DNA of 64,000 nucleotides from positions 1,916 to 65,915 of the forward strand of contig CAWAUY010000028.1 in the NCBI GenBank assembly GCA_963785275.1, read 5' to 3'. Numbering within the stretch: position 1 is the stretch's first letter; every line of letters starts with the position of its first letter. The notes below the pieces were generated by a model that did not search any database, was not told the DNA's origin, and saw only the letters and a list, made by a program, of their open reading frames with translations. The position numbers and the translations under genes are program-made. Below are positions 7,762-60,391 of the stretch, piece after piece. Source of the stretch: Candidatus Sulfomarinibacteraceae bacterium. Its GTDB lineage: Bacteria; Acidobacteriota; Thermoanaerobaculia; Thermoanaerobaculales; Sulfomarinibacteraceae.

Positions 7762-9171
7762 TCAGTGGACGTGGACCAGCGGTTGCACGTGCAGGGAGTG
7801 ACCGGCCGCTGCACTGAAGGCACCGAGAGAAAAGGTCAGGAGCATGTCGTAGTCGAGCGCCACGATGCCGGTCCGACCGTCGCCCGAAAGCGCCTGGGTT
7901 CCGGGATTGTTCTGGAACCACCGCGCCCATTCCTGCGTGCCCGGATCGAACATCAGGAACTGCTGGCCGTCTTCGGGGAAGACCTTGTTGGGAGACGGAT
8001 AGAGGTTTTCCGTGAAGGGAAACTGCGCCGATGAGTGGCAGCTCAGGCACGACGACGCCGCGAGATCGGTGGTCCCCTGGTAGCGTTTTCCGCTGACCGT
8101 GACGACGTTGTGCCGAGTGGCCACGTCCATCGGACCCGCGAGGCGCCCACCCCAGCCGAGTGTCTGGTGGGTGTAGGCGGGCGCTGCCGGGTTGAGCCAG
8201 GTCTCCATCAGCGGACCGTTTGGGTTGGTGCCCGACGGAGTGTTGGCGAACTGGGGGTCGTTGCCCCACATCGCGCCGACCGGGACCGCCTTGTCCCAGA
8301 CAGAGTTACCATTGGCAGTTGCGTCGTAGGCGAATGCCATGAAGACCCACCCGGTCTCGGGTGAGGCAACGGAATCTTTGATCTTGACGGCCATCTGCGA
8401 GAAGTAGACGGGCACAACACCAGGTTTCACGGGGTTGCTGTGAGGATCCTCGATCATCGCCACAGTCGGGCGATAGACATACGACACGGCCGAACCCGTG
8501 AGCGGTGGCCATTGGTCGGGAGTGAGCGTGGCCGACTCGACCTTGAAGACGATCGAACCTTCTGGGAACTGGGGATCGCTCAGATCGGGCTCGTAGGGGT
8601 CCTTCCAGATACGACCCAGCATCGCCGCAGCGACGTCGTTGTAATAGATGACAGCGTGGTTCTGAAACGGCACCGCCGGCACGGGGTCCTTGAAGGTGAA
8701 TGGCTGCAGAATCTGACCGGTGTAGGAACCCATGAGCGCCTCGCGACCGGAGTTGGGATCGATCGAACCGTCGGGGAGGCGAGAGCCCTGTGCCGACCAC
8801 ATCATGTCGTACCAGCCGGCCTTCGCCGGCGTCCAGGACAGCGGATCGTCGACGACGTCGCTCAGGGCGGGGGCCACAAAAGCCTTGAGTCGCATCATGT
8901 ACTGGAGGGCATTGCCGGCGTTGATCCTGCCGCCGTCGGCCCCCGCAATCCACTTGGACGGTACCGGGGCGGTGGGATAGGCATAGTTGGCAGTTCTAAA
9001 ACTTCCGCTCCACTGGTCTGCCGTCGGGTAGACCGTGTTGTTGGAGGCCAGCGGGTCGGGGCCCTGCGCGGTCGCCGTCACGGCCATGAGGGCCATGCAG
9101 GTCATCGCCGCGATATTTCGCAGATTGAAAAGTCCTCGTGCGTGTCGATCGGAACAAGCGGTCGTAGCCAT
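7762..9171 (-). CDS. Exported hypothetical protein with a single C-terminal CxxCH heme-c motif
   Basis: Internal ATG at 9169-9171 of ORF 7762..9504 is preceded by GGGGGA. Signal peptide MATTACSDRHARGLFNLRNIAAMTCMALMAVTATAQG. Contains SSCLSCHSS. I recognise no family. The region upstream of this ATG within the ORF is Arg/Pro junk overlapping the kinase gene. Confidence 0.6.
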   Translation of the reverse strand: MATTACSDRHARGLFNLRNIAAMTCMALMAVTATAQGPDPLASNNTVYPTADQWSGSFRTANYAYPTAPVPSKWIAGADGGRINAGNALQYMMRLKAFVAPALSDVVDDPLSWTPAKAGWYDMMWSAQGSRLPDGSIDPNSGREALMGSYTGQILQPFTFKDPVPAVPFQNHAVIYYNDVAAAMLGRIWKDPYEPDLSDPQFPEGSIVFKVESATLTPDQWPPLTGSAVSYVYRPTVAMIEDPHSNPVKPGVVPVYFSQMAVKIKDSVASPETGWVFMAFAYDATANGNSVWDKAVPVGAMWGNDPQFANTPSGTNPNGPLMETWLNPAAPAYTHQTLGWGGRLAGPMDVATRHNVVTVSGKRYQGTTDLAASSCLSCHSSAQFPFTENLYPSPNKVFPEDGQQFLMFDPGTQEWARWFQNNPGTQALSGDGRTGIVALDYDMLLTFSLGAFSAAAGHSLHVQPLVHVH

Positions 9172-9191
9172 GAAGTCCCCCGGTTTCCTTT

Positions 9192-12100
9192 TTAAGACTG
9201 AATCTCTTTCGCGACTATACCATTCTCCAGCGCTTCGGCATAGGCGGCAGCGCCCCACTGCGCGTAGAGCCCGCACGCCGCCACGCGATGGGTCGCCGCT
9301 GCGGCGGGGTCGAGGTCGCCGATGGATGCCGCCGCCAACTGGTGGGCGAGGGCCTCGATGTGAAGATAGCCGGAGTCCGAGGCCGCGTGTTGTGCCTCGA
9401 GGTAGATTGCCCGGGCACGATCGTGATTGCCCGCCAGGCGTGCGAGTTCTCCAGCGATGAGACGTTCCTTGTGCAGAAGGTTGTGGGGACACAGCGAGGC
9501 CCACTTCTTGAGGAGTCGATGGTTCTTTCGAATCGACCGAAGCCTGGACCTTTTGTGCGGAGACGTCGCCGTCGAGAGGGACGCGGCCAGAATGAGGGCC
9601 TCGTACAACCGGTGTTCAGCGCTGTGGAGCATGCCCGCCGAGTCCTTGAGGTAGGAGGTGGCGACGCGGAGCGTTTTGAGCGCCGCCTCGACATCACCCC
9701 ACAGATACAACGTCTGCATCTTGACGATGAAGTAGTAGTGGGCGAAATGGCGTGACCCGTATGTCGAGAGACCGGCGACGAACTCCCCCTCCTCAAAATC
9801 TTCGTCGCTGAAGTCGCTTCGGCTGCGGGTTTCGCCTCGAAGGTTGCGAACCGCCTGACGAACGGCCCTCACCGCCCCCGCCGGTTCGGTGAGACCGACT
9901 CGATCGAGGAGTTCGAGGTATTCCCGCGATGCATCCGAGATCCGATCCATCCTCTCGCCGCGCATGAAGTAGCTGAAGGTGGTGGCGCAACTGGCACAAC
10001 CGGTATGAAAGAGGTCTCCGGTTTCGAGACCCGCCGCAAAGGCTGTCCGCCACAGGTCTTCGGCTTCGGTCGCCGGCCGCAGCCAGGACGTGCCGAAATA
10101 GCCGACCACGAAATTGACCTCGGCCTTCTGCTGGACATTGTCGTACTTCTCGACGAGATCGAGCGACAGGCGGCCGAAATCATATCCCCGGCGATAGTTG
10201 CCGAGAATCCCGCCGAGGAAAATGCACCCGAACACCATGTAGCCGATCGCGGCATCCGCAGTGTTGCCGTGTCTCAGACACAAATTCACCATCCTCGCGT
10301 TGACCGCGACACTGAGTTCTGGACGCAACTGATAGGCGGCCTTGGCAACGGCAGCGATCAGCCGTACCGCCCCGACCAGGCGCTCGTCGACCATCGTCGG
10401 CACGTCGAGGATGTCCGCGACCTCGCGGCGACCGAGACGAAGCTTGGCGCCGATCAGGTCGAAGACAAAGGAAGGAGGGTGGAACTTCGGGGGCAATTTG
10501 ATACCGAACAGGGCGGCGCCTTCACGCCCTGCCCGGTAGGCATCATCAAATCTCGCGAGGTCCGTATAGAAGTGGACCAGCCGTTCGAGGATCTCGGCCT
10601 TGGCCGAGGTTTCGCCGGCGAAGGAGAGCGCCCGCTGATAGAAATCCTCGGCGCGGTCAAAGGCCAGGGCCTCGACGGCCTGGCCCGCCGCGATCCGGTA
10701 GAACTTACCCGCCTTTGCCAGCTCGCCCGCGCCTTCGAGGTGGACAGCGAGCAGTTCGGGTGTGTCATCGCCGTCCCTCTCCAGCGACTCTGCCAACGCC
10801 GCGTGGTGGCCTGCAACGACCGGTTTGGAAAGACGTGCCACGATGCTCTCGCGGATCCGATCGTGATAACACTCGACTTCGTCCTCGAGTCCGGGTCCGG
10901 TGGTTCGTATCATGCGTTCCGAGCGCAGTGAACTGACAATCTCGGGCGGGAGCGCCCGCAGCGCGGCGACCTCCTGGACGTGCCGCAAAAGGATCGGACG
11001 GCTCGCCACCGCGATCACTTCGAGCAAACGCCGCTGATCTTCGGGAAGCCTTTGAACCCTCTGCCAGAGGATCTCGTCGAGGTGCACCTCGCCGGCCTCG
11101 AAAACCTCGAGCCCCGCCTGGAGGTGCTGAACCAACTCGTAGATGAAGAGGGCGCTGCCGGCCGACTCCTCGACCACCCAGTCGGCCTGGGCGCCGGCTT
11201 CCGGCGATCCGTCGCCAATCAGAATCAGCGCCAGGTCGCGAGTCTCGTCGGTGCTCAGAGCATCGACGACCAGAGTCTCCTCGACCAGGTTTGCGTCGTC
11301 GCCGGCGAGATCCTCGAGCGCCAGCAGACACGGGCTCACACCGACGTACTCGGTTCGGTAACTGAACAGCATCAACATCCGCGGTGGCTCGGTCGAGCTG
11401 ACGATCTCCCTGATCAACGCGGCGCTATCAAGGTCCCCCCATTGAAGGTCGTCGATAAAGAGCACCAGCGGGTGCCGCTCGCCGATCCTGGATAACAGCT
11501 CGCGAAGGGCGCCGAAAGCCTGGAGTCTGAGCTCCTCGAGGTTGGAGCTGCCCTTGTGCGCGGACGCCATATCGGCGACCTGTTTGATGCGCCGCAAGGC
11601 CGGAAAGATTCGCGCCAGTGCCACGATGTGATCGGGCATCAAAAGGCTGATTTCTTCGCGTGGAAGGCTGAGCAGGTATCGGGTCAAGGAATCCACGAGA
11701 CTGTCGATGGCCTTGTAGGGCATCGACTCCTGTTCGTAACAGCGCCCGACCAACACTACGGGCTCTTCGCGCCCTGTCAGCTCCTGCAGAAAGTGCTGGA
11801 TCAGAGCCGATTTCCCGGCCCCGGAACGGCCGTGGACCCGGCACACCCCGACCGCTCCCTCGAGCGTACGCTCGAGGCAGCGCGACAGGGTCTGGAGGTG
11901 GTGGCGGCGACCGATGAACGGGGTCGCGAGGGGATCCGATACCGGAGAAGCCGAAACCGGGTCTGGAGCCGCGTCACCGCGGAGCCGCGCGATCACCTCG
12001 GGACCTTTGGGGCGGCTGTCGGGGTCCCGCGAGAGCAGCTCCATGCACAGAGTGGAGAGATCATCGGGCGCGTCGGGCGCGAGCTCTTGCGGCGGAGGCG

Positions 12101-28330: not shown

Positions 28331-28358
28331 CACAGAAAACGCCGCCCGAAGGCGGCCG
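28331..28358 (-). terminator. Intrinsic terminator downstream of tRNA-fMet
   Basis: The minus strand reads GCCGCC-TTCG-GGCGGC (28341-28356) followed by GTTTTCTGTGTTT. Confidence 0.65.
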
Positions 28359-31481: not shown

Positions 31482-31483
31482 GC

Positions 31484-31526
31484 GCAATTCTACACCGCGC
31501 TGCGAAATTCGGCGGTGTAGAATTGC
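31484..31526. promoter_or_regulatory. Perfect 15-bp inverted repeat filling the divergent intergenic region; each arm carries TAGAAT 5-6 nt before an ATG
   Basis: GCAATTCTACACCGC(31484-31498)-N13-GCGGTGTAGAATTGC(31512-31526). The minus gene context is GCGGTGTAGAATTGCgcATG and the plus gene context is GCGGTGTAGAATTGCcggATG. Neither start has a Shine-Dalgarno sequence. Confidence 0.5.
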
Positions 31527-31529
31527 CGG

Positions 31530-32462: not shown

Positions 32463-32488
32463 GCCGGGGTCGTCCCCGGCATTTTTTT
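32463..32488 (+). terminator. Intrinsic terminator after tRNA-Asn
   Basis: GCCGGGG-TCGT-CCCCGGC followed by ATTTTTTT. Confidence 0.85.
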
Positions 32489-32609: not shown

Positions 32610-33893
32610 ATGGCAACAGAATTCAACGCATTTGCAATGGCCCAACGGCAGTTCGATGCGGTGGCCGACAAGCTCCAGCTCGACGAGGGCATTCGGGAGC
32701 TTCTGCGCTGGCCCCAGCGCGAGTTTCATTTCACCGTGCCGGTGCGGATGGATGATGGAAGCTACAAGGTTTTCAAGGGTTTTCGGGTGCAGCACAACGA
32801 CGCCCGTGGTCCCGCCAAAGGCGGCATCCGCTTTCACCCCCAGGAAACCGTTGACACGGTGCGTGCGCTGGCGACCTGGATGACCTGGAAGTGCGCCGTG
32901 GTCGATATCCCCCTCGGTGGCGGCAAAGGCGGTGTGATCTGCGATCCTCACGATCTGTCACCACGCGAACAGGAAGCGTTGTGCCGTGGTTGGGTCCGCC
33001 AGGTGTCGAAGAATGTCGGACCGGTCCAGGATGTGCCCGCCCCCGACGTGATGACCAACCCACAGCACATGGTGTGGATCATGGACGAGTACGAAAAGCT
33101 TGCCGGCGGCCACTACCCCGGATTCATCACCGGCAAGCCGGTCGAGGTGGGCGGTTCCCTGGGGCGGACCGAGGCCACGGGCTACGGTGTTATCTACACC
33201 GTGCGCGAGGCTTTGAAACGTTTCGACATCCCGGTGAAGGGCGTGCGCGCGACCATGCAGGGTTTCGGCAACGTCTCGCAATATGCCGCAAAGAAGCTGA
33301 TCGAGCTCGGTGGCATGGTGGTTGCTGTGGCCTGTTGGGACAACGATGATCACTGTGCCTACACCTTCCGCAAACCCGACGGAATCGATGTCGAGTTCCT
33401 GCTGTCGATCACCGATCGATTCGGCACGATCCACAAGGAGAAGGCCGAAGCGGCGGGGTACGAGGTCCTCGAGGCCGACGCCTGGCTCGACCAGGAGGCG
33501 GAGATCGTGATCCCGGCGGCGCTTGAAAACCAGATCACCGGCGACAACGTCAACCGCATCTCCGCGACGGCGAAAATTGTCGCCGAGGGCGCCAACGGTC
33601 CCACCACCCCGGAGGCCGACGCGGTGCTCAAGGAGCGCGGCATCTTCGTCATCCCCGATTTTCTGGCCAACGCGGGCGGGGTCACCTGTTCCTACTTCGA
33701 ACAGGTCCAATGCAACACCAACTTCTTCTGGCCCAAAGACGAGGTTCTCGAGCGCCTCGACCAGAAGATGACCCGCGCCTTTAACGCGGTCGCGGACCTC
33801 GCCCAGGAAACCGGGGAGTACATGCGCGACGCGGCCTACATGATCGCCATCCAACGGGTGGCCACTGCGTGCCATCTGCGGGGGTGGGCGTGA
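32610..33893 (+). CDS. gdh: Glutamate dehydrogenase (Glu/Leu/Phe/Val dehydrogenase family, about 425-aa GudB/RocG type)
   Basis: GPAKGGIRFHP and KCAVVDIPLGGGKGGV (catalytic Lys region), with the Rossmann motif QGFGNV. Confidence 0.95.
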   Translation: MATEFNAFAMAQRQFDAVADKLQLDEGIRELLRWPQREFHFTVPVRMDDGSYKVFKGFRVQHNDARGPAKGGIRFHPQETVDTVRALATWMTWKCAVVDIPLGGGKGGVICDPHDLSPREQEALCRGWVRQVSKNVGPVQDVPAPDVMTNPQHMVWIMDEYEKLAGGHYPGFITGKPVEVGGSLGRTEATGYGVIYTVREALKRFDIPVKGVRATMQGFGNVSQYAAKKLIELGGMVVAVACWDNDDHCAYTFRKPDGIDVEFLLSITDRFGTIHKEKAEAAGYEVLEADAWLDQEAEIVIPAALENQITGDNVNRISATAKIVAEGANGPTTPEADAVLKERGIFVIPDFLANAGGVTCSYFEQVQCNTNFFWPKDEVLERLDQKMTRAFNAVADLAQETGEYMRDAAYMIAIQRVATACHLRGWA

Positions 33894-33894
33894 C

Positions 33895-34010
33895 GGAAAT
33901 TTTGAATGTTAAGTTTTGAGTTTTGAGTTTCCGGCTGCGACGACTCGGCAAGCCCGAGTGGAAATTCCAGGTCAATTCAAAATTCAAAATTCAAAATTGA
34001 AAATTGAACC
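33895..34010 (+). repeat. Heptamer-repeat hairpin element A (TTTTGAR x4 ... AATTSAA x5)
   Basis: The left arm holds TTTTGAA TGTTAAG TTTTGAG TTTTGAG (33900-33927). The right arm holds AATTCAA x3 plus AATTGAA x2 (33974-34008). 33897-33929 pairs with 33974-34006: 26 Watson-Crick pairs, 3 G.U and 4 mismatches. The apical GC mini-hairpin is ACTCGG/CCGAGT (33943-33959). The element starts 2 nt after the gdh stop. Confidence 0.7.
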
Positions 34011-34013
34011 GTG

Positions 34014-34041
34014 TTGACCAACAAGGGGCCGTTGATATAGT
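34014..34041 (+). promoter_or_regulatory. Sigma70-type promoter of tRNA-Gln
   Basis: TTGACC(34014-34019)-N16-TATAGT(34036-34041), 27 nt upstream of the tRNA 5' end. Confidence 0.55.
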
Positions 34042-34067
34042 CTCCGCCCCTGTTTGATGACCCGTGT

Positions 34068-34141
34068 TGGGGTGTCGTCCAATGGTAGGACATGCGGCTC
34101 TGGACCGTAGTATCGGGGTTCGAATCCCTGCACCCCAGCCA
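34068..34141 (+). tRNA. tRNA-Gln (CTG), CCA encoded
   Basis: TGGGGTGTCGTCCAATGGTAGGACATGCGGCTCTGGACCGTAGTATCGGGGTTCGAATCCCTGCACCCCAGCCA. U1-A72 is typical of tRNA-Gln. The anticodon loop is CTCTGGA. Confidence 0.95.
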
Positions 34142-34151
34142 ATTCAGTTTT

Positions 34152-34176
34152 AAAAACCGGCCCACGCCGGTTTTTT
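34152..34176. terminator. Bidirectional intrinsic terminator (tRNA-Gln / thiamine pyrophosphokinase gene)
   Basis: AAAAACCGGC-CCAC-GCCGGTTTTTT. An A-run and a T-run flank a 5-bp GC stem. Confidence 0.75.
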
Positions 34177-34816
34177 ATATTGAGGCGTCATGCTGTCGCA
34201 TGACGATGACGGCCCCGCCTTCGGCCCGGACGCGGACCTCGTTGTGCGTGGCCTCGTTCGAGATTGACGGTCGGTTGCCTGCGTCGACGGCAGCGTTGTC
34301 GATCGGCCAGCGGACGCCGCCGACAGTGACGCGGGTGGTGGGATCGTAGCTCCAGAATGACCACGTTTCGCCGGGAACCGCATCGAGTCGGACGTCGCCG
34401 CGGATCGCCAGCAGTCGGTGTGAGTCGCCCTCGAAGACGAGGCGAGGCCCGAGAGCCAATCGGGCCAACAAGCCGAGGTTGCCGAGGTCGTGGTCGACCC
34501 GGCCACCGGTTGCGGCGAGAACCGTGATTTCCTGCACTCGCAAATTTTCAAACGCGTACTCCAGGGCCTTGTCGAGGTCGGTACGGTCCTGGTCCGGCCT
34601 CTCGATCATCAGATCGTCTCCGAGCCACGAGCGGGTCGACTCGCTGATCGAATCGAGATCACCGACCACCGCGACCGGGCGCAGTCCGACCCGAGCGAGG
34701 TGATCGGCCCCGCCGTCGGCCGCCAGCAAGTGTTCGGCGCCTGCGGCGAGCGCTGTCAAACGCGGTGTCCAGCGGAGGGGAGCGTTTGCCACCAGAACTG
34801 TTCGTGGGGCTGCCAT
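34175..34816 (-). CDS. thiN: Thiamine pyrophosphokinase
   Basis: VAVVGDLDSI (GDxDS motif), LAATGGRVDHDLGN, and a C-terminal thiamine-binding beta-domain. 213 aa. Confidence 0.8.
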   Translation of the reverse strand: MAAPRTVLVANAPLRWTPRLTALAAGAEHLLAADGGADHLARVGLRPVAVVGDLDSISESTRSWLGDDLMIERPDQDRTDLDKALEYAFENLRVQEITVLAATGGRVDHDLGNLGLLARLALGPRLVFEGDSHRLLAIRGDVRLDAVPGETWSFWSYDPTTRVTVGGVRWPIDNAAVDAGNRPSISNEATHNEVRVRAEGGAVIVMRQHDASI

Positions 34817-34883: not shown

Positions 34884-36395
34884 ATGCAGAACTCGATTGA
34901 CAATCTATCCGGCACGGTTTATATCCCGGACACATCCGCACTTATCGAAAACCCCGACGCCCTCGATCGCCTCCTCACAGGCGGCAATATCGTGGTGCTC
35001 CTGCACCAGGTCATCGAGGAACTCGGCCGCCTGCAGGCCTCTCGCTCCAAGTCGGAGGGCGTGCGCCACGCGGCGCGTCTGGTGATGCGAAAGATGCTGG
35101 AGTATCGACGCCACCAGTTGATCCACCACAGCGTCGAACGGCTCTTCAACAACCAAACCGGAGCGGAGGAGTTTCGCAAGACTCCTGCCGGCGGGATACT
35201 CGCATGGGAACCGGACGGCGCGGTCGCGGCCCCCTACTCGGCCGAGTCGGGCGACAATCTGATCCTCGCGAGTGCCCAGCGCATTGCCGACGTCGCCAGA
35301 TCGAACGGTCACCCGGGTTATGAAGTGGTTGTGATCTCGGAGGATTCCAACCTCCTCCTGAAGTGTGACGCCCTGTCGATCTCCGCCGAGAATCTGCGCT
35401 ACGGCAAGGTCAGCCTCGACAACGTCGAGCAGATTTACCGGGGCGCGGTCGATGGCGAGATCGGTGAGGATGCCTTCCAGCTATTCCTCGATAGCGGCGC
35501 CCCCGGCGAGCGCTCTCTGCCGTTTTCCGAGATCGGCTTTTCAGAGTCCTTGGAACTGTTGTGGAATCTCGGCGTGGTGCTGCGGTGCGGTGAGGATATC
35601 TTGATCACCCGTTGCAACCCCGACCTTGAACAGGTCGAAGACCTGCGTTTTGCCCAGTATTGGGACCGCAAACGGGCGACCTACAAACCGCGTCCAATTC
35701 TCGGTTTCACCCCGCGCGACCCGCAGCAGATCCTCGGGATGGAGTTCCTGCTCGACCCCGATGTGCAACTGGTGGTGCTCGACGGTCCGGCCGGCTCGGG
35801 CAAGACGCGGATGATGGTGGCGACCGGTCTCTACATGCTGATCGGCCAACCCACAACGTGGCGTGTGGCGCCCCATTCGCAACCCTTGACGCCGGACTAC
35901 GGTTACGATCACGGCCTCCTCCTGTTGCGCCCGGAACACGCCTCGAGCCAGTACGATCTCGGCTATCTTCCGGGCGACTACGAGAGCAAGCTCTCGCCGT
36001 GGCTCGAGCCCTTCTTCCAGGCCGTGCGGTCGTTGTCCCTGTCGAACGAGCATGACTTCATGGAGGAGTTGCGCTCCACCGACCGGTTGACGATGGTCTC
36101 GACGTCGATGTTGCGGGGCCTCGATATCGAGCGGTCGATCGTCCTCGTCGACGAGCTCCAAAACGGAGACCGCCACCTCGCCAAGACCCTGATGAGCCGC
36201 TTTTGTGCGACCTCGAAGGTCGCTCTCGCGGGCTGCCTCGACCCGGTCCAGATCGACAACCCCTATGTGGACTGGCGCTCCAACGCGCTGACGCGCATCA
36301 AGGAAGCCTACAAGGGCTTCGGGCCTCAGGTCGCACAGGTGCGGCTCGAGCACAACTACCGCGGACCGATCTCCACGAGGGCCGACCTGCTCTGA
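34884..36395 (+). CDS. PIN-domain plus PhoH-like ATPase protein (YlaK-type)
   Basis: N-terminal PIN domain (YIPDTSALIENPDAL...VVLLHQVIEEL) and the PhoH-type P-loop VVLDGPAGSGKTRM with LVDELQN. Confidence 0.85.
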   Translation: MQNSIDNLSGTVYIPDTSALIENPDALDRLLTGGNIVVLLHQVIEELGRLQASRSKSEGVRHAARLVMRKMLEYRRHQLIHHSVERLFNNQTGAEEFRKTPAGGILAWEPDGAVAAPYSAESGDNLILASAQRIADVARSNGHPGYEVVVISEDSNLLLKCDALSISAENLRYGKVSLDNVEQIYRGAVDGEIGEDAFQLFLDSGAPGERSLPFSEIGFSESLELLWNLGVVLRCGEDILITRCNPDLEQVEDLRFAQYWDRKRATYKPRPILGFTPRDPQQILGMEFLLDPDVQLVVLDGPAGSGKTRMMVATGLYMLIGQPTTWRVAPHSQPLTPDYGYDHGLLLLRPEHASSQYDLGYLPGDYESKLSPWLEPFFQAVRSLSLSNEHDFMEELRSTDRLTMVSTSMLRGLDIERSIVLVDELQNGDRHLAKTLMSRFCATSKVALAGCLDPVQIDNPYVDWRSNALTRIKEAYKGFGPQVAQVRLEHNYRGPISTRADLL

Positions 36396-36408
36396 CGGCC
36401 GGCCGGCC

Positions 36409-36499
36409 AAATTTTGAATTCTCAATTCCCATCAACCTGCGCGGGCATCGAGGTGTGGGCCCGTCATTCAAAATTCAAAATTGAGAATTAAGAATTCAC
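36409..36499 (+). repeat. Heptamer-repeat hairpin element B (same family as element A)
   Basis: The left end AAATTTTGAATTCTCAATT (36409-36427) shares AAATTTTGAAT with element A. The right array is CATTCAA AATTCAA AATTGAG AATTAAG AATTCAC (36465-36499). 36410-36427 pairs with 36479-36496: 16 Watson-Crick pairs, 1 U.G and 1 mismatch (g36416/a36490), including 11 consecutive pairs. It is preceded by GGCCGGCCGGCC (36397-36408). The right arm overlaps the osmC stop codon. Confidence 0.65.
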
Positions 36500-36892
36500 G
36501 GTCGTTTCCACCACGAACTCCGGCGGGTTTTCCATCGTCTTTTTAACCGCGCACTGGCCGGCCGCGCGGACGAGGGCCGAGTGGTACTTCTCGGGGAACT
36601 CGGGAGGCACGTCGATCTTGATACGGATCACAGTCATCCGTCTGGTCTTCTCGTCACGCTCCCAGCTTTGGACAAGCTTGATGCCGTCGTGCGGGATGTT
36701 CCGCTTCTGGCAGAAACCGAGCACATAGATCCCGGCGCAGGTGGCGAGCGACGCGAGAAAGAGATCGAACGGTTCGGGTGCCGAAGCCTGTCCGCCGTTT
36801 TTCAGCGACTGATCGGTGACGATCTCGAAGCCGTCGAGGTCAGCGGTCACGCGTTGACCACCTGGAAAGGTCACGGTCAATTCGTTGTTCAT
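36488..36892 (-). CDS. OsmC-family peroxiredoxin-like protein
   Basis: SAPEPFDLFLASLATCAGIYV and RAAGQCAVKKT give the two conserved Cys of OsmC/Ohr. 134 aa. Confidence 0.85.
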   Translation of the reverse strand: MNNELTVTFPGGQRVTADLDGFEIVTDQSLKNGGQASAPEPFDLFLASLATCAGIYVLGFCQKRNIPHDGIKLVQSWERDEKTRRMTVIRIKIDVPPEFPEKYHSALVRAAGQCAVKKTMENPPEFVVETTVNS

Positions 36893-56200: not shown

Positions 56201-56243
56201 AACCAAGAATCAACTGATAGGTTGCGGTCGGTATGAATCAGAT

Positions 56244-56418
56244 ATTTGATCTTGGATTTTGGATATTTGTTCTTACGGTGCTCTACGCTTGGCCTGCTTG
56301 TGGTGGCGATTACGATTTGTTGACATCCAACATCCAACATCCTGTCAACACTCCGCGATCTTACCATTCCGAGAAGCAGTCTGGCAAGAGTATCCAACAT
56401 CCAACATCCAACATCCGT
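56244..56418 (+). repeat. Heptamer-repeat element C: one (nTTGGAT) array and two complementary (CATCCAA) arrays between mutS2 and dnaG
   Basis: L array: ATTTGAT CTTGGAT TTTGGAT ATTTGTT (56244-56271). R1 array: CATCCAA CATCCAA CATCC (56324-56342), sitting in the loop of the 8-bp hairpin TGTTGACA/TGTCAACA (56318-56325/56343-56350). R2 array: TATCCAA CATCCAA CATCCAA CATCCGT (56391-56418). Confidence 0.7.
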
Positions 56419-60187: not shown

Positions 60188-60194
60188 TCTCGGA

Positions 60195-60296
60195 GGCTTG
60201 GGGCCTGGGGCTTGGGGCTTGAGATCCGAAATCAAGGCCAAACCTCAAGCCTCGAGCCCCAGGCCCCAAGCCCATCTACCGGCTTGCTGGTAGATG
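60195..60296 (+). repeat. Heptamer-repeat hairpin element D (CTTGGGG-type / CCCCAAG-type arms, 29-bp stem) plus a second 8-bp hairpin
   Basis: 60195-60223 pairs with 60244-60272 over 29 consecutive pairs: 27 Watson-Crick and 2 G.U. The loop is 20 nt. The second hairpin is CATCTACC(60273-60280)/GGTAGATG(60289-60296). The element starts 8 nt after the rpoD stop and ends 23 nt before tRNA-Met. Confidence 0.8.
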
Positions 60297-60318: not shown

Positions 60319-60391
60319 GGGCCCATAGCTCAGCGGTCAGAGCCGCCGGCTCATAACCGGTCGGTCCCAGGTTCGAATCCTGGTGGGCCCA
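60319..60391 (+). tRNA. tRNA with CAT anticodon (elongator Met, or Ile2 if lysidine-modified); CCA not encoded
   Basis: GGGCCCATAGCTCAGCGGTCAGAGCCGCCGGCTCATAACCGGTCGGTCCCAGGTTCGAATCCTGGTGGGCCCA folds as a cloverleaf with a 7-bp acceptor stem and anticodon loop CTCATAA. The discriminator A is followed by TGG. Confidence 0.9.

Follow-up and report, generated by a model that had tools for sequence, protein, structure and literature searches.

Hairpins with heptanucleotide-repeat arms at gene ends in Candidatus Sulfomarinibacteraceae

What is the palindrome of 7-nt repeats that fills the spacer between the convergent genes phoH (encoding a PIN-PhoH protein) and osmC of a Candidatus Sulfomarinibacteraceae bacterium, and what might it do at the ends of two genes? 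This palindrome, element B, lies in a 64-kb stretch of contig CAWAUY010000028.1 (the window, here meaning the whole 64,000 nt that were analysed). An earlier reading made from the letters alone (the sequence-only reading) had described it as a second copy of an element A family and had likened it to MITEs (miniature transposable elements with inverted repeats) or repetitive extragenic palindromic (REP) sequences. The comparison with relatives gives good support to the conclusion that B is a member of a lineage-wide class of ~100-nt imperfect palindromes in Ca. Sulfomarinibacteraceae (Thermoanaerobaculia, Acidobacteriota). As a whole explanation we favour, with a probability of about 0.5, an inherited, slippage-built heptamer hairpin that serves as a 3′-end exonuclease barrier or insulator.

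Element B and its orthologues

The open reading frame (ORF) list and Pfam domains place B between phoH and osmC, which converge on it (Table 1). The phoH stop codon, the flank, the left arm and the right array were all found at the positions given by the sequence-only reading, as was the overlap of the last two heptamers with the end of osmC, GTG AAT TCT TAA. Its '51-nt core' holds as the distance between the paired segments, whereas the unrepeated core measures 37 nt. Tandem Repeats Finder (TRF) returned the right array with period 7 and 4.7 copies (36466–36498), so that B has the at least three tandem 7-nt units in an intergenic position that characterize heptanucleotide simple sequence repeats (SSRs). 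An inverted-repeat search paired 36410–36427 with 36479–36496 (18 nt, 89% complementary, 51 nt apart), and two further registers, offset by ~7 and ~14 nt, also pair, giving three registers in total. RNAfold on the + strand reproduced the reported 17 of 18 paired positions, with 11 consecutive Watson–Crick pairs, one U·G pair and one G·A mismatch. Taken alone, this fold barely beats shuffled sequences (z = −1.8 on the + strand and −2.3 on the − strand); B is a partly eroded copy, and its significance derives from its 7-nt periodicity and its orthologues, not from its own fold energy. The 11-mer AAATTTTGAAT, said to be common to the left ends of A and B, has exact matches at 33897 and 36409 and, with at most one mismatch, 8 matches against 0.13 expected; AATTSARAATTSAR has 8 matches against 0.12 expected. 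Rfam covariance models at the gathering threshold matched tRNAs only, leaving B and A unmatched, and at E ≤ 10 there was nothing on B and only chance-level microRNA-like matches on A.

Orthologous loci were collected by scanning a PhoH alignment against GTDB representative genomes, which yielded 53 loci, mostly from Ca. Sulfomarinibacteraceae or Thermoanaerobaculia; OsmC homologues of 70–96% identity came from metagenome-assembled genomes of Thermoanaerobaculales and Holophagae. The convergent order of phoH and osmC is kept in ~45 examined loci. Folding of the phoH/osmC spacers of at most 200 nt (n = 33) was compared with dinucleotide shuffles at a threshold of 2 standard deviations: 27 fold at least that much better on one strand and 25 on both, with median z scores of −4.3 and −5.0 on the two strands, that is, about equally well. 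At PhoH identities of at least ~78% the architecture is near-universal, consisting of (often) a GC hairpin, three to six heptamers, a GC-rich core stem-loop and the complementary heptamers, the second array reaching or overlapping the osmC stop. This layout is constant, whereas heptamer sequence (flavour), unit number and core vary between genomes. GAATTYT, GAATTAG, GAGTTTT and GAACTNA are the commonest heptamers, and others are GCTAACA (L006, L008 and L009), AGTTGAC (L022), GACGTTA/CTTCTAA (L034) and ATTATGA (L021 and L024). The presence of one architecture in 27 of the 33 short-spacer loci across a family indicates that the element is vertically inherited in place. Among more distant loci (L023, L029–L033, L035–L038 and L053) the phoH/osmC heptamer element is not present.

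The site of element A, between gdh and the tRNA-Gln gene (site A), is similar in this respect: in most of 22 orthologous loci a heptamer hairpin follows the gdh stop and precedes the promoter of tRNA-Gln, and the promoter itself (TTGACC-N16/17-TATAAT) is conserved across them. Core stems can be typical of a lineage and common to several of its sites, with CCCACCCGCCC...GGGCGGGTGGG in some lineages and CCATCGCA...TGCGATGG in others.

The small GC hairpin directly after phoH has little stability in the window (−7.4 kcal/mol, z = −0.35). Relatives carry CGGCCC-loop-GGGCCG there (−11.4, z = −2.2) or a compensatory variant, CGGCGC-GAA-GCGCCG, whose longer stem reaches 13 bp (−23.1, z = −5.2), and these variants precede GAAUUUUGAAUUUU. 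It is the only one of B's stems that precedes a U-rich stretch (AAAUUUUGAAUU), and together with the U-rich first arm it may be a weak conventional terminator added on the phoH side.

Some phoH/osmC loci depart from the common form. The hairpin is split in L057, with ~1 kb between heptamer-like runs (9056–10019), and the core of L008 is interrupted by an insertion of ~200 nt (11510–11820). Many relatives' cores (L013, L016, L020, L015 and L010) have four close G-tracts in the 3′ half on each strand, such as GGGAGGGCGGGTGGG at the B site of L013; from these a G-quadruplex might form in competition with the hairpin, and the window copies are without such tracts. The distant, hairpin-less relatives L029, L032, L035, L036 and L037 have a motif in common, TGA-ACCACA(A/G)AG, which directly follows the osmC stop codon and may be a different conserved gene-end element.

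The class in the window and in ~1 Mb of related loci

A census covered the window and ~0.99 Mb of relatives' loci, the latter in pieces of ~20 kb. Arrays of at least three copies numbered 115 at period 7, against 26 at period 6, 27 at period 8 and 10 at period 9, and of the 145 intergenic period-7/14 arrays, 96 are matched within 220 nt by an inverted partner of at least 70% identity. After merging, 45 of 57 elements adjoin a stop codon within 20 nt, 17 of these adjoining both of two convergent genes; two lie between divergent starts, and ten are uncertain because the positions were taken from a simple custom gene caller. The hairpins start 0–15 nt past stop codons. The T-rich arm comes first in 38 of the 57 elements, the A-rich arm in 8, and 11 are mixed, which makes the T-first polarity a majority and not a rule. 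Since all 57 elements trace to only ~6 orthologous sites and lack independence, such counts show consistency rather than independent events, a limit that weighs against the functional reading discussed below.

Within the window, autocorrelation is clearly dominated by period 7 (0.37–0.53) in 4 of the 25 intergenic spacers longer than 50 nt, and these hold A, B and two further elements, one beside rpoD and one between mutS2 and dnaG. The four are made of three unrelated heptamers (AATTCAA, GGCTTGG and CATCCAA) with no common seed. Element A folds more clearly than B (−40.2 kcal/mol, z = −4.0). An alignment of the two gave only a 24-nt local match with unrelated cores. The two are of one class and have their repeat flavour in common, and to that extent the kinship seen by the sequence-only reading holds. 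The tRNA-Gln promoter begins 4 nt past A, which places hairpin A as a separator between gdh and the tRNA transcription unit. The rpoD-side hairpin is near-perfect (29 bp, −68.3 kcal/mol, z = −7.1) and lies 45 nt upstream of tRNA-Met (60319–60391). The looser mutS2/dnaG element has TGGATTT TGGATAT (56254–56267) opposite (ACATCCA)3 at 56323–56342, followed by a second, direct array, (ATCCAAC)3.6, at 56392–56416; in L135, a metagenome contig that is unrelated, a CATCCAA array likewise adjoins one of (AATTCAA)n.

Table 1. Coordinates of element B, its flanking genes and same-class elements in the window
Feature	Position	Strand	Basis or remark
PIN-PhoH gene	34884–36395	+	ORF list; Pfam PIN_4 and PhoH
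PIN-PhoH stop TGA	36393–36395	+	ORF list
B, small GC hairpin GGCC-GGCC-GGCC, GGCCGGCCGGCC	36397–36408	+	directly 3′ of phoH stop
B, left T-rich heptamer arm AAATTTTGAATTCTCAATT	36409–36427	+	sequence, pairing search
B, GC-rich unrepeated core, 37 nt	36428–36464	+	own short stem-loop GGGC...GCCC (RNAfold inner stem)
B, right A-rich heptamer array CATTCAA AATTCAA AATTGAG AATTAAG AATTCAC	36465–36499	+	sequence, TRF
Last three osmC codons GTG AAT TCT (V N S) and TAA	36488–36499	−	inside last two heptamers
osmC ORF	36488–36892	−	stop TAA = TTA at 36488–36490; Pfam OsmC
Element A	33897–34010	+	4 nt past gdh stop (33891–33893); left TTTTGAG-type array, right (AATTCAA)3(AATTGAA)2; TRF, pairing search
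Sigma-70-type promoter TTGACC-16-TATAGT for tRNA-Gln	34014–34041	+	promoter scan, 10/12 matches with TG
tRNA-Gln	34068–34141	+	tRNA call
Looser element between mutS2 and dnaG	56240–56416	+	TRF, sequence reading; MutS2 and DnaG domains by Pfam
rpoD-side element (GGCTTGG)4 / (CCAAGCC)5	60194–60273	+	7 nt past rpoD stop; TRF; RpoD domains by Pfam

Canonical terminators made of an A-tract, a GC stem and a T-tract follow tRNA-Gln, tRNA-Asn and tRNA-Met (34150–34177, 32463–32487 and 28341–28356, respectively). The tRNA-Gln terminator, AAAAACCGGCCCACGCCGGTTTTTT, folds with −15.7 kcal/mol (z = −5.2), and the tRNA-Asn stem (32463–32480) is followed by ATTTTTTT; their presence shows that the lineage uses ordinary terminators beside heptamer hairpins.

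Two other spacers are worth recording. The 48-nt divergent spacer between a PGM-type mutase gene and a DUF3891 gene (31482–31529) holds a palindrome with GTGTAGAAT on each strand, probably a pair of back-to-back extended −10 promoters. The palindrome is kept in ~15 relatives with spacers of 48–51 nt. In L017 and L057 a heptamer hairpin has been inserted beside it, in a 5′ untranslated region (UTR) or divergent-spacer position, the only lineage-specific gain of an element that was seen, and in L011 the spacer has a hairpin of hexamer repeats (CCGTNT). Hairpins of this sort in the PGM 5′ UTR are carried by three lineages. These copies mean that the class is not confined to gene ends. In the tlyA/DUF2298 spacer (window ~37700), the near-identical strain L002 has an extra 236 nt relative to the window, and L012, L013, L017, L050 and L054 carry a heptamer hairpin of another, purine-rich flavour (AAGAGTK).

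Turnover of the repeats and of the osmC end

The window and metagenome contig L002 are ~100% identical over kilobases, and yet at B the left arm is shorter in the window by exactly 14 nt (a two-unit indel) and the core has three substitutions. This is the unit-number variation between close strains that is characteristic of heptanucleotide SSRs, and it shows that whole 7-nt units are gained or lost by slippage. Across orthologous spacers, a heptamer on one arm is usually mirrored by its complement on the other; that both arms change flavour together suggests intrastrand templating or selection. The flavour itself may be seeded from local gene-end sequence. In L006 the phoH end, CTC TAA C, gives the arm flavour GTTAGAG when reverse-complemented, and the two are joined in a 13-bp hairpin; in AATT-type lineages the first heptamer unit is the osmC end AAT TCT TAA itself.

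Flavour is also shared between sites. The 7-mer Jaccard index of A and B is 0.084 within a genome and 0.039 between genomes (permutation p = 1e-4). In L051 the likeness extends through the core: over 101 nt, element A matches B in reverse complement at 93% identity. This genome thereby shows copying between neighbouring elements, and the inverted copy indicates local gene conversion; as arms are homologous to their neighbours' arms in both orientations, gene conversion over 2–3 kb suffices as an explanation. Window and L002 also differ by ~35% in the gdh/tRNA-Gln spacer (33890–34062), including the stop codon, the hairpin and the promoter spacer. We considered this tract of 65% identity as evidence that element A had been replaced by a mobile copy and rejected it, because it also spans the non-repeat promoter up to the tRNA and ordinary mosaic recombination explains it equally well; it resembles a brief stretch of mosaic recombination with the coding and tRNA sequences as its limits.

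Do such elements move? A non-autonomous element of the MITE type or of the type of REPINs (REP doublets forming hairpins), copied by a trans-acting enzyme such as a REP-associated tyrosine (RAYT/Y1) transposase encoded elsewhere in the genome, seems improbable to us. The size and shape are those of a REPIN, with two inverted arms of ~25–35 nt in an extragenic hairpin of ~100 nt. The similarity of elements within a genome, the whole-element inverted copy in L051, the lineage-typical core stems at several sites and the PGM/DUF3891 gain against a 48–51-nt spacer elsewhere could all reflect mobility, and vertical persistence is known for REPINs (10.1101/2021.07.10.451892). The sequence-only reading had seen no target-site duplication at B, and we found none either: the flanks, ending in GGCCGGCCGGCC on the left and starting with GGTCGTTTCC on the right, have no direct repeat in common, and there is no duplication at site A. 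The termini are tandem heptamers rather than unique terminal inverted repeats. The arms differ even within the window, whose four elements contain no single REP seed and no GTAG-like 5′ motif. Orthologous occupancy, and not scattered presence and absence, is the pattern at both sites; filled and empty variants were not found at B (27 of 33 occupied) or at A (most of 22 occupied). The sole clear copy-over joins sites 2.4 kb apart that have arm homology, for which gene conversion is explanation enough. Among the metagenome matches listed for AATTCAAAATTCAAAATT, none was attributable to the source genome, a scan that is no test of dispersal within that genome. The missing duplication, the tandem-heptamer termini and the occupancy of the site thus leave the MITE-like dispersal suggested by the sequence-only reading unsupported.

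The end of osmC follows the repeat. In more than 100 homologues, OsmC ends in a conserved ...PPEFVVETVV followed by one to three variable residues. The conserved part is also present in loci without any element; it is ancestral, and the repeat shapes only the final residues. In the DNA of 45 orthologues, the variable last residues and the stop share the array's register and track its flavour. The last codons are AAT TCT TAA (NS) in the window, L002, L007, L015, L020 and L027, AGT TCT TAG (SS) in L004, AGT TCT TAA (SS) in L018, AGA AGT TAG (RS) in L034, AGC AGT TAG (SS) in L009 and AGC CAG TAG (SQ) in L006. NS and SS thus go with AATTCTT and AGTTCTT, RS with AGAAGTT, and SS(Q) with CAGTTAG, whereas element-less loci end in TS, TG, VG, RT or A. 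Where the first stop is lost (L010, L051 and L054), the ORF gains two codons (QF) up to the TGA of the next unit and ends in NSQF or SSQF; in more distant homologues it runs through three units (NSQFSILNS). Extensions such as ...NSQFSILNS, ...SPVLSAEF and ...SSQF in the homologues P0101, P0102, P0048, P0075, P0112, P0116 and P0120 are translated heptamer repeat, and probably reflect either reading through a stop that was lost or wrongly called ends.

These comparisons bear on the proposal that the repeat was accommodated in, or had supplied, the end of osmC. It applies to the last one to three codons, which are element-derived and co-vary with flavour, and not to the conserved ...VETTV of the window, since ...ETVV is retained regardless of the element. 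A simply ancestral ...VNS is ruled out by the same 45 orthologues, in which only ...ETVV is conserved.

Possible function and comparison with known systems

Under the favoured reading, both convergent mRNAs would be transcribed through B, and each transcript would fold into a long hairpin 0–15 nt past its stop. The hairpin would define the mRNA 3′ end, shield it against 3′-to-5′ exonucleases and curb read-through that would reach the opposing gene or, at site A, the promoter of tRNA-Gln, much as has been proposed for the hairpins of enterobacterial REPs and bacterial interspersed mosaic elements (BIMEs). It would be built and rebuilt by heptanucleotide slippage, with flavour copied between nearby elements, and the array would repeatedly run into and rewrite the last one to three osmC codons and the stop. 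Position and conserved folding suggest this function: given its placement past stops, between convergent genes and before a tRNA promoter, and folding kept through sequence turnover, the element looks like a hairpin formed in RNA where mRNAs end.

Several observations weigh against it. There is no U-tract past the 3′ arm at B or site A; at B the A-rich 3′ arm precedes GGTCGTTTCC on the + strand or GGCCGGCC on the − strand. As U-tract terminators follow the tRNAs of the same genome, termination by the hairpin alone is doubtful. Folding is as strong on the antisense as on the sense strand, and G·U pairs have no strand bias; at sites with a single 3′ end, the comparison of sense and antisense stability and G·U pairs splits about 11 to 10. 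In L004, L054 and site A of L016 the arms are of different flavour and pair poorly, and the hairpins at PGM/DUF3891 stand outside gene ends.

A canonical intrinsic terminator was also considered for B, which does have GC-rich stem-loops in the inner core stem and in the small hairpin past phoH. It was rejected, since on both strands the T-rich arm comes first (5′) and the A-rich arm last (3′), as in 38 of the 57 elements, and no U-tract follows the stem. NusG (TTNTTT), CsrA (GGA) and RNase E (RN↓WUU) motifs were unsupported across the different flavours.

The equal folding of the two strands, the lack of G·U bias and the PGM 5′-UTR copies keep a neutral origin a serious rival. In this explanation, which we hold to be possible rather than probable, the palindromes are a mutational by-product of slippage, hairpin-templated strand switching and gene conversion, without selected function, and survive mainly at gene ends, since they do no damage in such places. 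Heptanucleotide over-representation and slippage are established, as described in PMC4679880 and PMC4692102. The unit indel between window and L002, the derivation of flavour from local sequence in L006, the sometimes non-complementary arms and the hexamer-based hairpin of L011 would all be expected of such a by-product. The metagenome scan for AATTCAAAATTCAAAATT points the same way: it matched at least 120 contigs of 20–70% GC, (AATTCAA)n being widespread in unrelated contigs, and among the matches listed 25 of 120 pair the array with a near-perfect inverted one. A by-product accounts less well for sites that stay filled at family-level divergence (PhoH to ~78% and GDH to ~86% identity) despite full sequence turnover, for a hairpin that occupies almost the whole of a tight spacer and for its precise start 0–15 nt past stop codons; a useless 100-nt palindrome would be expected to vanish in some compact-genome lineages.

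The equal folding of both strands could instead reflect a role of the DNA itself, as a cruciform-prone palindrome or as a phased array that a nucleoid-associated protein or a topoisomerase would bind where transcription converges. BIMEs bind integration host factor and gyrase. Near-perfect Watson–Crick symmetry, the lack of an RNA strand bias, AATT every 7 bp in most arms, the position between convergent genes and the four G-tracts per strand of relatives' cores, with possible G-quadruplexes (GGGAGGGCGGGTGGG in L013), would fit such a role. We nevertheless regard it as very improbable. The heptamers are highly variable, and GGCTTGG, GCTAACA and CATCCAA lack AATT, which argues against one sequence-specific binder; central loops of 5–30 nt disfavour cruciform extrusion, and a candidate protein was not identified.

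The RNA-hairpin reading can be carried further, speculatively and with little confidence on our part, to a distinct, self-renewing class of gene-end element, 'microsatellite-armed palindromes', in which slippage would tune the stem, flavour would spread between sites and last codons would be rewritten. The U-rich 5′ arm, with one heptamer to each site, might be a phased pad for a single-strand binder with a 6–7-nt footprint, such as cold-shock proteins with an oligonucleotide-binding (OB) fold, and the hairpin a protein- or temperature-titrated read-through switch in cold-sediment bacteria.

If the hairpins are functional, an uncultured, globally abundant sediment lineage would make gene-end structures from microsatellites, as an evolvable alternative to canonical terminators and REP elements, and this would help to explain the over-representation of 7-nt repeats in bacteria, a puzzle that dates from 2007. 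The loci also offer a clean natural system for arm complementarity kept through sequence turnover, for repeat homogenisation within a genome and for intergenic repeats that overwrite C-terminal residues and stop codons. For annotation they carry a warning: ...NSQF or ...NSQFSILNS extensions in this clade are translated repeat.

Part of this picture is already known. Mrazek et al. (2007) reported that heptanucleotide SSRs are over-represented in bacteria and proposed polymerase slippage, as cited in PMC4679880 and PMC4692102, and motif-specific cases are on record for cyanobacteria (the short tandemly repeated repetitive sequences, STRR), Xanthomonas (GGGAATC) and Beggiatoaceae (TAACTGA) in the same two sources. 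In the literature searched, we found no description of a systematic hairpin around a GC core, of placement at stop codons, or of family-wide orthologous persistence with flavour turnover, within-genome homogenisation and co-variation of terminal codons.

The elements resemble four known systems, each in part. Bacterial MITEs (Correia/NEMIS, RUP, ERIC and Nezha) are likewise short, non-coding, hairpin-capable and intergenic, and sometimes overlap gene ends, supplying stop codons or C-terminal residues; they differ in having defined terminal inverted repeats related to insertion sequences, target-site duplications and presence/absence polymorphism, none of which was seen for B. Bidirectional intrinsic terminators also lie between convergent genes, have a GC-rich stem-loop flanked by complementary A/T-rich segments and form a hairpin on both strands, whereas here the polarity is reversed (T-first in 38 of 57) and the arms are 20–35 nt long and 7-nt periodic. 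REPs, BIMEs and REPINs of Enterobacteria and Pseudomonas are extragenic imperfect palindromes found mostly at 3′ ends and between convergent genes, with inverted arm pairs, ~100-nt hairpins, genome-specific sequence families that last at orthologous sites, and proposed roles in mRNA 3′-end protection and termination-related effects. Their arms, however, are unique conserved sequences of 20–40 nt with a GTAG-type 5′ motif, mobilised by RAYTs, whereas the arms here are tandem heptanucleotides, variable in unit number and sequence even in one 64-kb window. Heptanucleotide SSRs, finally, are intergenic tandem 7-nt units in two to six or more copies that differ in length and sequence among close relatives at the same site, and in Xanthomonas GGGAATC now and then forms inverted pairs and varies in length from species to species at a given intergenic site (PMC4692102). 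A genome with such SSRs has mainly a single motif, repeated in direct orientation and in many cases placed upstream of start codons; here many motifs are paired in inverted orientation around a GC-rich core (96 of 145 intergenic arrays), right past stop codons. The class to which B belongs thus combines two known kinds, the heptanucleotide SSR and the REP-like 3′ hairpin.

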